From positions 434,001 to 498,000 of the forward strand of contig CP145424.1 in NCBI GenBank assembly GCA_036867785.1: a DNA stretch of 64,000 nucleotides, written 5' to 3'. Positions 3,001-9,000 of the stretch are shown here, in pieces. The DNA comes from Plasmodiophora brassicae (Eukaryota). Within the stretch, counting starts at the first letter, position 1. Every line of letters begins with the position of its first letter. The position numbers were made by a program.

Positions 3001-6000
3001 TCGATGCATCTCGGCAGTGATGGTATGTTGTCCACGTATAACAGTTTGTATGCTGCAATACCCGTATTAACCGCCTCCATCAGCCAATGGATTATATCGA
3101 GCTCTGTCACACGAGCTGTACTAGCCAGAACGGCAAGCAGGATGCTTGCAATAAATGCGGCATCAGAGGCCGTTCAGCAAACCGATCTGTCAAGTACCAT
3201 GGGGCATTTATGTTCGCGTCATCGGATGTCCAACGCCATGTCAGTGTACTGGTAGCGTTGCTAAGTACCGGTTGACCACTGAAGATTTATGCTTGCTGAT
3301 ATAGTTCTGTAGAAAATATGAAGACATGCTGGAGCATCTCGACGCATTGCCTTCCGATAAAAGGCCGAGCGACGTGTGTTCACTTGATCAGCTACGTGAT
3401 GATGTGCGCTGCGAAGATGACAACGAAGTTCGGCGTCGCATGACGTCGAGGAACGTCGGTGACCGTGGTGGATACCGTCACCCGGCTTATGACGTCTACT
3501 CCGTTGGCCTTCTATGCAGTTTTGGACACGCGTCCAACTACGTGCACGATCCTATGCACGCCATCTGCATGTGTGTTCGGTCGTGGAGACTGTCCCATTC
3601 CCGTGTGGGCTTGGCCCAATAACACTGCCTATCCAGCTAAAGTGAAGGCTGGTGTAAAATGGTCGTCCCTGGCTGTTGAAATCGATGAGGTTTTGGAGAA
3701 CCTTATAACGTTGGTATCGCGAACCGGTGGTTCAACGAAACCAAGGAACCCTTTGGTGAGTTCCTGGTGGAAAGCAGCTGACTCTCTCGAACGAGCACCC
3801 GCGAAACAACAGACCACCAGATCCCAATGCCAATGTCGCCTAGCCAAACGAGAGAGTCAGCTGCTTTCCACCAGGAACTCATCAAAGAGTTCCTTGGTTT
3901 CATTGAACCACCGGTTCGCGATACCCACGTAAGGTTCTCCAAAACTTCATCGCTTTCAACAGCCAGGGACGACCATTTTACACCAGCCTTCACTTTAGCT
4001 GGGTAGGCAGTGTTATTGGGCCAAGCCCACACGGGAATGGGACAGTCTCCACGACCGAACACGCATGCAGATGGCGTGCATAGGATCGTGCACGTAATTC
4101 GACGCGTGTCCAAAACTGCGGTATCCACCACGGTCACCGACGTTTCTCGACGTCATGCGACGCCGAACTTTGTCGTCATATGACGCGCAACTCGGTTACG
4201 ATGATGGACAACGACAATGACGACTTGACACCGGAAGCATCTCCTCGATCTCGGGCTAGCCATGCCGTTCCTGACGTATCGTTTGTGTTTCGCGTGTCAT
4301 CTCTGGTCAGCAATATCACGCGCGCATCCGGCAGTGGTTGCTGTGCTACTTCGGAGCCAGTTCCGTATTTCTCGCGGATCCTGTTCCTCCAATCGTTGTT
4401 CCGGTCCAAAACATTTCCTCAACAGTTGAACGAAGAATATGCTAGACATATCAGCTGACTACTCGACGAGCCAGCCGATTCCATCCGTGGCTGGACCGAC
4501 GGGACACACTTTTCTGTCCGTTATGCCGATTTCATGCGGCGGTGCATTCCGTACGTACCATCAGTTCCTGTTGGCATTTTCGTCAATGAATGACGCTGCT
4601 GATGTCCTCAAATGGTGATCGAGATCCGTTGTACCGCTCGTTCAGCATGTCGGGGGAATCCTCTGTGGAGCGCTGCTGTATGCACGTCCACGTTATCACC
4701 ATGAGGCAATGCGTGGAGGTTGATTCGCATTCCTGACGTTATCGATATTTAAGCCTCGTGAGAGGTTTCGAGTGGGCATTGCTCACGCAAATTCGAACGT
4801 TCCTAAGCGCCGCATGCCGGCATGCGGGATTGACGCGAAAGGCAAAGTCTACTGAGCCGAGTGATGCGGCAAGAACAGCGCCGGCACATCCGGGAACGGC
4901 ACATCCGGGAACGTCGTACCCGGCTGCAACCAGTACGATCTGGGGGCGGTACCTACCGACCACCTCGACGGATCAAAGGTGAACCCGGGACAGAAGAAGA
5001 CGCATCATCCTGACGGCGGCTCTCCACAGCATGGAGCGCCCGGCGATGACCAAGGATAACTGACGCGCGCAATTACACGTGTAGTTGACGACCTGCGCCC
5101 TGCTCGATACAATTGTTTCCCCTCCCACCACCGTTCGGTGTTGATGGCGCCCGATCCGCCGCAGCTGGCAGCCTGTCCGCCATCAACGGGGAGCGGCGCA
5201 CTCGATGAACGGAGGGCGACTGACTGGCTTCTCGGTCCGGGGCGCCATCGCCACCATCGTCTTCGGTAGATCAATTCTAAGCGCTCCCAGCGTCTCGGTT
5301 TCAAGTTGCGAAGCGTACTCAACTCCAGTGTTTGGATGCCTTCATTCACTGGAACCAGTTGCAGCGGATGAGACGGGCGAGCGGTTTCAGGGCGACTGCC
5401 TCGAAGCGGCGTACGCGCCGGACGTACGCGAGGTCGACGCGCAGGCCATAGTGGCGGGCGGCGATCGCGGCCAGCAGGTCGGCGGGCGCGTCCGTCGCCA
5501 TGTTGACGGCCAGGTTGACGAGGACGTCGTCGATCGCGTACAGGTTGGACGAGATGGCGGCGACGACGCGCGACTCGATCGCCAGCGGCAGCCGCATCCG
5601 GCCGCCGCCGTACGCGACGACCTCGTCCCGCAGCGCGACTTGGGCCACGTCGGCGAACACCAACTGGACCGTGTTCGTCGCCAGCCCGGTCTGCAGGTAG
5701 AAGTTCGACGGCGTCGTGTCGATGCCGATGACGGACGATGCCGTCACCGCCTTCGACACGCGTATCATCTGGTGCAGGATCCGGGCGCTGAACGCCGACC
5801 CGCTGTCCAGGTACTCGTTCGCGAACGTACCGTTCGGCACGCGGGGCTGAACGCAGAACGCGACCACACGTTCGCTCTGGTCGGCGACGACGACCTCCTG
5901 GATCCACGTGTCCAGGACGCGTACGCCGCGCTGCCTGAGCTCGGAGACGTACCTGCTGAAGCTGTTCTGGAACCGGTCGAACAGCTGCCTGGTCGCGAAC

Positions 6001-9000
6001 GTCGGCAGCAGTTTGTACACGAACGCGTCGTCGTCGTCGTCGTTGAACCAGACCGTCGCCGGAATGAAACTCTGCGACGACGTCGTGACGCGCGCCGACG
6101 CGTTACGCGTCGCGATGTCGCGCATGACGACCGTCGATCGACGTGCCCTTGTGCAGATGGCGCCACCGCTGGACGACAACCGCTCCAGCGATCGCAGCGC
6201 TTCCTCGATCGCTTCGCCGTCGAGGTCCTGGCGAGCGGCGAGCGACACGTTCGCGATGCGTTTGAGCGAACCGCCGGAAAGGACGTCAAAGATTTCGGTC
6301 ACGTTCATGAGGGCCTCGTCGTACAGCGCCATGATACGGTCGAGGTCGTCTTCGGTGATGTTCAGCGGCAGGCAGATCTGCGAGAAGTCGGGCTCCAGGG
6401 CACAGTAATGGGCGAAGATGCCGACGTCGAACAGCGTCTTGGTGAAGAACCTGCCCATCAGGTCGGATCGGAACTGGACGGCCGCGAACAGCCCCAACTG
6501 ATTGAACGTCTTCAGGACGCGCTTGTGCTTGTCGCAAAGCCGCTCCAGGTGGTCGTGCAGGCGACCGCCCATCGCCCGGACGTTGTCGAGGAACCCGGGG
6601 CCCTGGACAATGTCCATCATGGCGGACGTGACCGTGCACGCGAGGTCGTTGCCACCGGTGCTGGTCATGATCGCGAACGGGTCCGCATTGAGCAACGCCG
6701 CGTACTTCTTGTTGAAGGCGCAGGCGCCGATCGGGACCATCCCGCCGGACATGCCTTTACCGGCGACGATCATGTCCGGGTGCAGGCCGAATTGCTCCAC
6801 CATCCACATCGTCCCCGTCCTGCCGAAACAGGTCTGCACTTCATCGACGATCAGGGCGACGCCCATCTCGTTGCACTTCCTGGATAGGTTATCGAAGAAG
6901 CCGGCCGGCGGCAAGTGCAACCCGGTCGTCATGTAGACCGGGCAGATGACAACGGCGGCGGTTTCCTCATCGATGGCCTTGTCCAGGGCCGCCCAGTCCC
7001 ACATCGGCACACGTGTGACGCGGCCGGTGGGTCGGGGGCCAACCCAGAACCGTTCGTCGCTCAGGAACGATGCATCGCTGGTGAACCCGTGGTACGCCTG
7101 CTCGAACGAGACGACCTTTGGACGCCCGGTCGCGTACCTCGCCATCTTCAGCGCCGCTTCAATCGCTTCACTGCCCGAGTTCGTGAACAGGACGCGGTCG
7201 ATCCCGTCCGGCATCGACTCGGCCAGGCGTTTCGCCAGCGTCGCCTGCCGGGCCGTGTGGTAATGGTATAACGTCCCGGCCGACGACAACCCGTCCAGGT
7301 CGGCCTTCATCGCCTCGACGAGACGCGGGTGGTTGAATCCGAGCGGGTAGCATTTCGCGGCCAGGTTCAGCAGCGACTTTCGGCAGCCGACGTCGTTCAC
7401 TTCAATGCCTTCGCGGACGCCAGGCACGAACGTCAGGCCGTTGATGTCGAAAAACTCGACGAACGACGGCGACATGAACTCGGCGACATCACGTTTGCAT
7501 ACGTCGCGGTCGGGCGTGTCAGCGTCCGGGTACACGCCTTCGTAGAGGCTGGAGAAGTCCCAGGTGTCGTGCTGGCAGTGACGCTCGACAGCGTCAATCA
7601 TTCGATGCAGGTATGCGCTTGCGATCGTTTTCTTCATCGTCATCATCTCATGCCTCATCGTGGCAATAGACGTGGTCGGCTCGCCGTAGAAGCGACCCTT
7701 CCAGCGCAGGCGCCAGAAGGTCCTGAAGTGCCCGGCGGACATCGACATCCATGGCACCTTGCTCGCAACCTGCAGGAACACGTCGATCACGCTCCTGTCC
7801 TGTCCCGACATGAGGGACAGCGCAGTGACGACGTTCGAGTAGTACAGGTACAGGAACAGGACGCCGAATCGGTGCCCGTCCCGGTATTGGGCCAGCTGTG
7901 CGATCTGATTCTGGAACACAGTCTTCATCGCTGGATCGTCGATTAGCGCGACGTCGCACGCGTCGATCAAAGCAGGGAGGAAGAACTGGGAAGACTTGCC
8001 GTGACAGCCGTCGAGAACGTCACGAAGGTGGTGAGCGGCATCAACGCCCACCCCGGTCAACGCATTGCTGACATGGTCGATGTCGGATCGAAAAAGGTCC
8101 ACGTCCCAGCCACTGAGATGCTCGTCGGCAGCGTCGTGCGGGTACGCGGCGATCATGCGGGAGAGCGAGACGATGTCCATCTGTAGCGGGTCGGCAACGG
8201 CGAGGTCGTACATCTGGTTGACGTCATACCCGTAGCATTGTGCCAAGGCGGTTGCGGTCGCGTGCGCATGCATCTGGATGTGGTGGAACGCCATCGTACG
8301 CGCGAACACGTTCTGGATGACAACGTGCGACGCCATCTGCGACCGCAACAGGTTGACGTTGATGTTCGGGAGGGTCTCGTCCACCAGGGACGTATCGCCC
8401 GACACCATGTACTGTGCCTTGGCGACACTCAGGCTGTACGCTGAATCAACGAAAACCATGCACTCGACACGAAGGCTTCCCGTTTCGTAGTCACCCTTGA
8501 ACTGGCGGAATTCGTCGGGCGAGCAGGTCGATGTGATGTAGACCACGCTGGGGGTGGACGACGACGGTTCCATTGATGGAAGCATTCCCCGAAAGTGCTC
8601 GAGACGCTGTGTGAACACCAGGACGATATCAGCGTTCATAGCGTCGGCAACGTCGTCGGCGACAACCACGCCCGTCTTGCCCAGGAAGCGCTTGTAGGCG
8701 GATCGGGACCTGTTGAAGACCTTGACGTCGTCGATCTGGTTCGCGAGCAGCCCCTGCACGAAGGCAGACCCCATCGTGCCCAGGCCAATAACGGATAGTC
8801 GCGAACGCATGTTTCTGCCCATGGGGACGAGGCTCAGGTAATCGGTATAACCTGGCCGGTCCGCTGAACGCTGCTTGGCACCCACGTCACCTTCCGAACG
8901 TGACACCTCGGCGGCAGACGATCGGCATGACTCAGCTGGAACCACCAGGTCGCCGGCATGGTCTACCGGCTCTAGACCTGCACGCGCTGGTCGGTTTCCT

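Follow-up and report, generated by a model that had tools for sequence, protein, structure and literature searches.

Plasmodiophora brassicae carries, on contig CP145424.1 of assembly GCA_036867785.1, a long frame which appears to join a reductase, a class-III aminotransferase and a kinase-like domain in one protein. We asked where such a gene comes from, whether it is still in use, and which reactions its product could catalyse. The window, that is, the whole stretch of DNA that was analysed, comprises 64,000 nucleotides (positions 434,001 to 498,000 of the forward strand), and all coordinates below refer to it; P and L numbers are our handles for proteins and loci, respectively. An earlier note, made from the sequence alone, had suggested a bacteria-derived one-protein amine pathway in which an omega-transaminase product cyclises to an imine and is then reduced, possibly with host polyamines as substrates. 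We show that the frame is a gene of the P. brassicae chromosomes that originated in bacteria, and that it represents a widespread but uncharacterised two-gene module of prokaryotes in a rare form, fused with a reductase. For the chemistry, several alternatives are to be distinguished, and the most plausible of them differs from the one suggested initially.

Open frame and domain composition

The listing of open reading frames contains a single minus-strand frame of 1199 codons at 5346..8945 (GTG-initiated, stop at 5346..5348). The ATG at 8822 is favoured as the start, since a Rossmann strand then begins at residue 9 and GLGTMG follows, matching the bacterial homologues. By our own estimate, stops would occur at a frequency of about 0.03 per random codon at the composition of this frame, and therefore a frame of 1199 codons arising by chance is excluded. 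The codon periodicity is strong (G+C of 0.60, 0.42 and 0.85 at the first, second and third codon positions). In the resulting 1158-residue protein three Pfam domains are matched, all of them above the curated cut-offs: NAD_binding_2 (residues 9-114), Aminotran_3 (492-833) and DUF6206 (933-1108). The parts of the gene, including the domain that uses pyridoxal phosphate (PLP), are as follows.

5346..8822, minus strand: likely coding sequence from ATG, 1158 residues (P0001) and stop
7488..8822, minus strand: reductase-like N-domain, residues 1-445 (Pfam NAD_binding_2 and F420_oxidored; Foldseek)
8481..8798, minus strand: Rossmann part of the N-domain, with a long helix and an all-helical region after it
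6324..7349, minus strand: class-III PLP domain, residues 492-833 (Pfam Aminotran_3, PF00202)
6756..6758, minus strand: Schiff-base Lys689 in AGKGMSGG (motif reading)
6027..6281, minus strand: linker between the PLP and kinase-like domains, residues 848-932 (isolate alignment)
5349..6026, minus strand: DUF6206/protein-kinase-like domain, residues 933-1158 (Pfam, alignment, model)

The intronless 3.5-kb frame described in the earlier note is indeed one continuous open frame at 5346..8822, with no introns on the sense strand. The genome is intron-rich, as was also assumed there: the accessible text of the genome paper gives a mean of 4 introns of 60 bp each per gene (PMC4471660), and the neighbouring plus-strand gene has introns of 61 and 65 nt in RNA-type contigs.

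An exact-sequence look-up placed the fusion protein on an 894-kb contig, and its 90% cluster includes the entry 'hypothetical protein PBRA_005685 [Plasmodiophora brassicae]' (P0170, 1222 residues). The other long frames of the window encode tubulin, MIP-T3, a part of an Mtr4-like helicase and TPR proteins, so that by its neighbouring genes the setting is that of a flagellated eukaryote. Contamination or misassembly was ruled out by these eukaryotic neighbours, by the records of two isolates, and by contigs of 19 runs from 9 studies. A scan for bacterial sigma-70 promoters and terminators gave results near the shuffle expectation, which are irrelevant in a eukaryote.

Relatives and descent

The exhaustive search covered 1.84 billion representative proteins. 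It yielded 26,370 matches at E up to 0.001, nearly all of which are plain class-III enzymes; the word-index search with the whole protein returned only the protein itself and unrelated class-III fusions, including the APH-class-III fusions P0003 and P0006. The best full-length relatives are P0008 (1163 residues), P0010 (1143) and P0011 (1159), with E from 1.6e-95 to 5.7e-77, each of which aligns in one stretch at approximately residues 364-1137 with about 31% identity; the next one, P0015 (1091 residues, E 1.1e-58), aligns in three stretches. Each of the four combines a Rossmann region with Aminotran_3 and DUF6206, the Rossmann matches of P0008 being just below the cut-offs. Partial architectures are represented by P0012 (830 residues, from a metagenome-assembled genome, MAG, of Polyangiaceae), which has NAD_binding_2, RedAm-like_C and Aminotran_3 and is without DUF6206, and by P0043 (738 residues, Ruegeria meonggei), which has Aminotran_3 and DUF6206.

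The genome locus scan used one genome per prokaryotic species and a four-row alignment as the query. Among the best 80 of 598 confirmed loci, it returned L001, identical to P0010 and located in a Myxococcota MAG, and L002 from a Vicinamibacterales MAG, which matches residues 3-1140 at 45%; tblastn with three N-domains against the same 80 loci found homologous reductases in these two alone. Both have the same three domains in the same order as the P. brassicae protein. The metagenome scan gave no triple fusion in the best 80 of 573 confirmed stretches. Thus, the architecture, which the earlier note had taken to be undescribed, is rare, as five other triple fusions were found in the 1.84 billion representatives and 185,579 species genomes searched, two of them from the named MAGs. 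A literature search found no paper mentioning DUF6206 or PBRA_005685, and the two P. brassicae genome papers, in their accessible parts, discuss gene transfer for transporters, chitinases and lectins, not for the fusion gene. As a separate observation, a cluster in the ESM Atlas (score 0.76, a lead only) holds 55 bacterial proteins of about 645 residues with NAD_binding_2, NAD_binding_11 and Aminotran_3, Bdellovibrionota being named among the sources; fusions of a reductase and a PLP enzyme that lack the kinase-like domain may thus be more frequent than the triple fusion.

All relatives whose source is on record come from bacteria or archaea, and the nearest named plain relatives, from Rhodococcus, Blastocatellia and Acidimicrobiales, are all bacterial. 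With the locus lying amid eukaryotic genes, the bacterial derivation proposed initially stands. In the tree of DUF6206 domains (55 rows), the six triple fusions including that of P. brassicae form one clade (support of 98.3 in the Shimodaira-Hasegawa-like approximate likelihood ratio test, SH-aLRT), where P. brassicae and P0015 are long branches meeting. The P. brassicae protein, L001 and L002 also share derived traits of the kinase-like domain: the absence of the GYGEIS loop, a short C-terminus, and the motif 'LRD..AYGG'.

The picture from the PLP domain depends on the outgroup. With 108 rows in the tree, P0012 and the other five triple fusions form a clade (support 98), and P. brassicae falls outside it, together with two long branches (support 89, with a long-branch warning). 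When 29 distant outgroup rows were removed (P0003-P0006, P0018, P0020, P0028, P0036, P0037 and the rows L058-L080), the remaining 79-row tree placed P. brassicae within the triple-fusion clade with support 98, or 97 with P0012 added. These sequence comparisons lead us to conclude that the Plasmodiophora lineage received the triple fusion ready-made from a bacterium.

The prokaryotic gene pair

The subfamily was taken to comprise the PLP genes that encode a protein with 35% identity or more to the PLP domain of the Ruegeria protein (n = 138 loci). A DUF6206 gene adjoins the PLP gene in 116 of them, and of the remaining 22 loci, 17 are contigs shorter than 4.5 kb. Of 58 genome loci, only L001 and L002 have the two fused; in the others they are separate genes that mostly abut. 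The pair is distributed, among the best 80 genome loci, over Chloroflexota, Actinomycetota, Myxococcota, Acidobacteriota, Bacteroidota, Thermodesulfobacteriota, Asgard archaea and others.

The commonest neighbour (18 of the 116 loci) is a Peptidase_C69/AAT-like Ntn hydrolase encoded directly downstream, a protein of about 435-440 residues with weak Peptidase_C69 and AAT matches (L008, L009, L011, L013 and 14 more loci). It is followed by ABC ATPases (n = 7), WS/DGAT proteins (n = 7), Peptidase_M28 (n = 6) and penicillin amidases (n = 5). The substrate of the module may hence be an amine released from an amide, the specific compound not being fixed by the neighbours.

Conserved residues and models of the three domains

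The PLP domain is complete and has the PLP lysine, as the earlier note had it: the Aminotran_3 score is 200.5 bits (cut-off 30.5), and K689, D660 and Q663 (DEVQ, 660-663) and the NSGSEA phosphate loop (548-553), which would bind the cofactor, are all kept. Ordinary class-III transaminases use an Arg/Glu pair for the 2-oxoacid: the Arg, which precedes the PPL motif, holds the 2-oxoacid or amino acid by its alpha-carboxylate, and the Glu, which lies in QGEGG, is its switch. Both marks are absent from the P. brassicae domain. The Arg of putrescine aminotransferase ('tiRieppl') is replaced by Gln815 ('vlQflppl'), and Gln occupies this position in at least 90% of 66 relatives. QGEGG of putrescine aminotransferase (YgjG) is changed to PATLG or ASSG in typical family members, and the EPIQGEGG region as a whole reads ET.PA..G in the family and ICPVYMTTG in P. 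brassicae.

At the same time, P. brassicae retains only 51 of the 82 columns conserved in at least 90% of the 66 relatives, which is the lowest value among 67 rows (the next lowest is 66; the other triple fusions have 71-76). The 31 lost columns, which together with its eukaryotic nature and its long branch set P. brassicae apart from the bacterial triple fusions, cluster in pocket motifs: HCNGGVFNFGHR (now AAKCYPLGFNHP), DIGNHH..S..R and ET.PA. As the pocket is heavily remodelled, the P. brassicae protein may take a different substrate from its bacterial counterparts. All NCBIfam equivalog cut-offs are missed (NF008570, 172.7 vs 612; PigE NF053554, 208.1 vs 850; argD TIGR00707, 201.3 vs 410).

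The C-terminal domain, called kinase-like in the earlier note, was identified as DUF6206 (PF19709; 34.7 bits, cut-off 30.4, profile positions 33-216 of 271 matched) and modelled as a protein-kinase-like fold (predicted local distance difference test, pLDDT, 77.1; predicted template-modelling score, pTM, 0.79). NCBIfam contains no model for DUF6206 proteins. In the alignment of 51 DUF6206 rows Q992, D1035, N1040, D1058 and N1107 are invariant and K937 is near-invariant, and all six are retained in P. brassicae. The family's GYGEIS loop and C-terminal tail, in contrast, are lacking there as well as in L001 and L002. The top Foldseek matches of the model are PERK, RIP3, WaaP and Bud32, with protein-kinase-like chains only, and 48 of 50 rows listed by VIA-align are kinase-fold proteins by title. 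Over the kinase-fold matches of both programs, Z is 8-10.1 and the root-mean-square deviation (rmsd) 4.3-5.5 over 184-210 aligned residues; the VIA-align Z values are 10.1 for Bud32, 9.7 for APH(3')-Ia, 9.6 for amicoumacin kinase and WaaP, and 9.5 for choline kinase LicA. Small-molecule hydroxyl kinases are thus among the matches, one more example being the microcompartment aminopropanol kinase 6ef6 (Z 8.7, rmsd 4.9, 203 aligned). The model is that of a two-lobed kinase with Lys, a putative catalytic Asp..Asn and a putative metal-binding Asp, and phosphotransfer is predicted.

In the N-domain, NAD_binding_2 (PF03446) scores 33.2 bits (cut-off 21), and the motif GLGTMG...FNRS was located as read before, at residues 13-18 and 36-39. 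GxGxxG and NRS are invariant across seven aligned N-domains (G13, G15, G18, R38). Foldseek matches the model to L-serine 3-dehydrogenase, HIBADH and imine reductases about equally (E ~2e-8), these matches depending mainly on the Rossmann part of a low-confidence model. In HIBADH/6PGDH-type dehydrogenases a catalytic Lys stands at the start of the helical domain; no invariant Lys is seen past the Rossmann fold in the seven-row alignment, which has no reference enzyme among its rows. RedAm-like_C (PF21761) was found neither in the P. brassicae protein at E up to 10 nor in P0008, P0010, P0011 and P0015 at E up to 0.01, and is present in P0012 alone (44.9 bits, cut-off 27). The helical part of the P. 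brassicae N-domain has extra segments relative to the bacterial homologues in the alignment, and no signal peptide-like N-terminus is visible by eye in the translated protein.

Judged by these motifs, all three domains appear to keep their cofactor and catalytic residues: GxGxxG and NRS (NADPH), Lys, Asp and Gln (PLP), and Lys, Asp..Asn and Asp (ATP and Mg).

Proposed reaction sequence and the diamine alternative

The explanation which we consider the best, and would expect to prove right about as often as wrong, is a fused module of bacterial origin that combines a kinase, a PLP-dependent elimination and an NADPH-dependent reduction, with a remodelled pocket and an antisense-dominated locus. 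The kinase-like domain would phosphorylate the hydroxyl of an amine lacking an alpha-carboxylate (an amino alcohol or a hydroxylated diamine), the PLP domain, having no Arg/Glu pair, would eliminate phosphate and ammonia to leave a carbonyl, and the NADPH domain would reduce this carbonyl or a cyclic imine formed with a second amino group. We favour this order of steps on a hydroxylated amine by inference only. A precedent for the middle step is that class III includes a few phosphate-releasing lyases (phospho-lyases), as noted in the accessible part of PMC8154272. According to the available text of PMC4207490, a dehydrogenase, a phosphotransferase and an aminotransferase occur together in a mycobacterial RMM1 microcompartment locus whose chemistry centres on amino-2-propanol.

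If, vice versa, the initial suggestion were correct, the PLP domain should act as an omega-transaminase on a diamine or polyamine (putrescine, ornithine), the aldehyde should cyclise, the N-domain should be an imine reductase, and the kinase-like domain should be accessory or regulatory. The typical family members are indeed closest to E. coli putrescine aminotransferase (E 8e-69, end-to-end alignment), the related reductase-PLP protein P0012 does have RedAm-like_C, and the N-domain model resembles imine reductases as well as hydroxyacid dehydrogenases, while the lack of a conserved Lys past the Rossmann fold, as in the seven-row alignment, is typical of imine reductases. However, Gln replaces the Arg before PPL in P. 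brassicae and in at least 90% of the 66 relatives, and RedAm-like_C is undetected in the P. brassicae protein itself. Moreover, the PLP gene is constantly accompanied by the kinase-like gene (116 of 138 loci) and only rarely by a reductase, so that the diamine route leaves the constant partner without a role. Thus, this chemistry is not supported and we regard it as unlikely. The same holds for the suggested action on host polyamines, as nothing links the protein to them and its N-terminus does not resemble a signal peptide.

Transcription of the locus and maintenance of the gene

We placed Logan contigs from four runs of four studies on window positions 3000..12000. Rare variants are dropped from such contigs; the run records do not state RNA, and the label 'RNA?' is a guess. 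The contigs were taken as derived from spliced RNA because of the GT..AG joints of 61 and 65 nt in the neighbouring plus-strand gene. Over the fusion frame, the following features were observed.

5286..9023, plus strand: span of RNA-type contigs, spliced, multi-intron (approximate extent of the transcript)
6458..6511, plus strand: intron, joint 6457>6512, skips 54 nt, AG/GT..AG with the cut 4 nt rightward; 4 of 4 runs
7609..7667, plus strand: intron, joint 7608>7668, skips 59 nt (not a multiple of 3); 4 of 4 runs
7844..7917, plus strand: intron, joint 7843>7918, skips 74 nt (not a multiple of 3); 4 of 4 runs
8030..8095, plus strand: intron, joint 8029>8096, skips 66 nt; 3 of 4 runs
Plus strand: alternative contig joints 8024>8094 (2 runs) and 8074>8131 (1 run)
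Plus strand: further joint 5474>5541 (1 run)

Within the allowed shift, each joint in the fusion frame fits one canonical pattern only, plus-strand AG/GT..AG, and none fits CT..AC. Thus, in the available contigs the dominant RNA at the locus is a multi-intron transcript antisense to the fusion frame, whose longest ATG frame encodes 154 residues. The depth of the bin 7515-7815 in the four runs (15.6, 23.0, 40.4 and 22.5) equals in each run the depth of the single spliced contig (19.4, 28.6, 50.2 and 28) multiplied by 242/301; therefore, nothing else covers the 59-nt part 7609..7667. An intact sense transcript was not seen in the contigs of the four runs, from which a minor or stage-specific sense mRNA could be missing. 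A split or unexpressed transcript was among the results which, by the earlier note, would speak against it; this applies in part, since the contigs over the frame are spliced on the plus strand and none shows the sense mRNA intact. As spliced antisense RNA dominates the locus, the protein should be either stage-restricted or lowly expressed.

These data allow for a different explanation, in which the gene is a decaying or silenced relic of the transfer: the frame is open, no working enzyme is made, and the locus serves only as a template for a spliced non-coding antisense RNA. The plus-strand GT..AG joints in all four runs, with the frame-breaking 59- and 74-nt parts uncovered by other contigs, agree with this, as does the loss of 31 of the 82 family-conserved columns, more than in any of the other 66 rows. 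A second copy has, moreover, already become fragmentary. PBRA_005677 (P0009, 251 residues, annotated as 'ornithine aminotransferase'), on the same 894-kb contig, matches residues 62-175 and 745-847 only, at 68-86% identity, and a 118-residue fragment, P0094, runs out of frame after 'AKAEYM'. PBRA_005677 appears to be a decayed paralogue, pieced together from two parts of a copy of the fusion gene. It lies outside the window, as tblastn of P0001 against the 64-kb window found no second copy. Separately, loose contig ends occur at 5733, 6043 and 6230; they continue alike in three runs and may be transcripts of the decayed copy.

Against decay of the gene itself, all 1158 codons are open in two isolates: P0170 and the window protein are identical at 1141 of 1158 positions and differ by 15 substitutions and two in-frame one-residue gaps. 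The N-domain has four substitutions and the PLP domain two, the linker has five and a one-residue gap, and the kinase-like domain four and a one-residue gap. Hence the length changes are all in frame, the differences avoid the PLP domain, and the most variable part is the 85-residue linker (6 of 17 changes). The cofactor and catalytic residues are all kept, and alongside the strong codon periodicity the relative synonymous codon usage (RSCU) correlates with that of native genes at 0.90, vs 0.71-0.89 for controls. The antisense splicing is likewise seen over the neighbouring frame 10048..11574, and Logan contigs drop rare variants, so that a minor sense mRNA would be missed. The gene therefore looks maintained, being intact in two isolates with changes that spare the PLP domain and with host-like codon usage, and we consider the relic explanation doubtful.

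A stronger version of the kinase, elimination and reduction sequence, namely a working one-protein pathway acting on a hydroxylated amine of the host cell and gated by stage through the multi-intron antisense RNA, seems to us improbable on present evidence.

Several observations weigh against the favoured sequence of steps itself. The phospho-lyase step is pure inference, as no enzyme of the PLP/DUF6206 module has been assayed, and the nearest solved or curated relatives are true transaminases (putrescine aminotransferase for the family; PigE and AcOAT for P. brassicae). The kinase-fused phospho-lyase-type proteins P0003 and P0006 belong to a different clade, in the outgroup half of the tree. 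The neighbourhoods of the gene pair are variable, with no constant third gene in 116 loci, and most loci are without a reductase. The N-domain model has a pLDDT of 58 and is confident in the Rossmann part alone, its helical part being poor. To these should be added the position of P. brassicae outside the triple-fusion clade in the 108-row tree, the loss of conserved columns and their clustering in the pocket, and the antisense splicing in four of four runs, where no contig spans the 59-nt segment that a sense mRNA needs. The high G+C at third codon positions, finally, could be inherited from a GC-rich donor.

Comparison with known systems

The putrescine aminotransferase YgjG/PatA (4uox, 5h7d) is the best solved relative of the typical family members, with which it has the motif GG..FN.GHRNP in common (E ~1e-33 to the P. 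brassicae PLP domain). It differs in having Arg before PPL and QGEGG, and in lacking a kinase or reductase partner. For the P. brassicae PLP domain itself, the best solved and curated match is PigE (4ppm, E 2.5e-45; NF053554, E 2.5e-61), which is likewise a long multi-domain chain with the class-III domain on the C-terminal side. PigE has no DUF6206, and the match stops before the C-terminal motif; its N-terminal part is of a different kind from the P. brassicae N-domain.

Systems that pair a kinase fold with an Arg-less class-III enzyme follow the same logic as the proposed module: hydroxylysine kinase and 5-phosphohydroxylysine lyase, ethanolamine-phosphate phospho-lyase (ETNPPL, 6tor), and the APH-class-III fusions, which were also nearest in the Atlas feature search (score 0.76, a lead only). 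In the mycobacterial RMM set of aminopropanol dehydrogenase, kinase (6ef6) and PLP enzyme a dehydrogenase is present as well, as in the triple fusion; later work has reportedly assigned to this locus an aminopropanol dehydrogenase, a kinase and a phospho-lyase. However, the kinases of these amino-alcohol systems are of the APH and not the DUF6206 type, their PLP domains belong to another clade (ETNPPL 6tor matches the P. brassicae PLP domain at E 1e-27 only), and their dehydrogenase is a short-chain one and not of the 6PGDH/HIBADH type. Thus, by sequence the resemblance to ETNPPL-type phospho-lyases and APH kinases appears to be one of logic, not of descent. The N-domain, in turn, has GxGxxG, NRS, NAD_binding_2 and the fold in common with HIBADH, L-serine 3-dehydrogenase, imine reductases and reductive aminases; it is about 445 residues long, vs about 290 in that superfamily, and RedAm-like_C is found in P0012 only.

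The weakest alternative is a carboxylate-to-amine route following the logic of ArgB/ArgC/ArgD or PigE, in which the kinase would make an acyl phosphate, the reductase an aldehyde and the PLP domain an amine by transamination: the best-scoring curated models are indeed PigE and argD/LysJ-type transaminases, and PigE joins a reductase to a class-III transaminase, but the scores are far under the curated cut-offs (e.g. PigE 208 vs 850), acyl-phosphate reductases use a catalytic Cys in GAPDH-like folds and not a 6PGDH/HIBADH-type Rossmann domain, the reductase is absent from most loci, and Gln stands at the Arg position before PPL, which makes this route very improbable.

Other features of the window

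Just downstream of the neighbour of the fusion gene, runs X3, X6 and X12 have 23 listed differences from the window between 3159 and 4003, and the contigs of X3 and X6 have an 'opposite strands' joint 3575>4061; in these three runs no difference is listed within the fusion frame. The segment 3159..4061 is a strain-variable or rearranged site.

On the other side, the plus-strand frame 10048..11574 (508 residues) has a Cys-rich C-terminus and no Pfam match. Joints of both polarities are found over 9987..11574: 9999>10064 is GT..AG, and 9987>10036, 10681>10744 and 11098>11260 are CT..AC. Either spliced antisense RNA is produced there too, or it is the minus strand that carries the real gene.

At 24463..30702 on the plus strand, two adjacent frames free of internal stops (988 and 1073 residues), each with N-terminal TPR repeats and DUF4470, look like a tandem duplication. 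The highest G+C of the window (0.64-0.685) is at 32001..36000, where long frames overlap on both strands.

Significance

The pair of a PLP enzyme and DUF6206 spans many bacterial and archaeal phyla, and no paper on it was found; as the fusion unites the three activities in one polypeptide, expressing just one recombinant protein could disclose what the entire module does chemically. The gene is also a previously unremarked transfer of a metabolic enzyme gene into an obligate intracellular plant parasite, and its decayed second copy and spliced antisense RNA raise the question of how acquired genes are controlled. If the proposed sequence of phosphorylation, elimination and reduction is true, it would provide the first function for the DUF6206/class-III module and its first eukaryotic case, and would represent a non-homologous reinvention of the kinase/phospho-lyase pairing.

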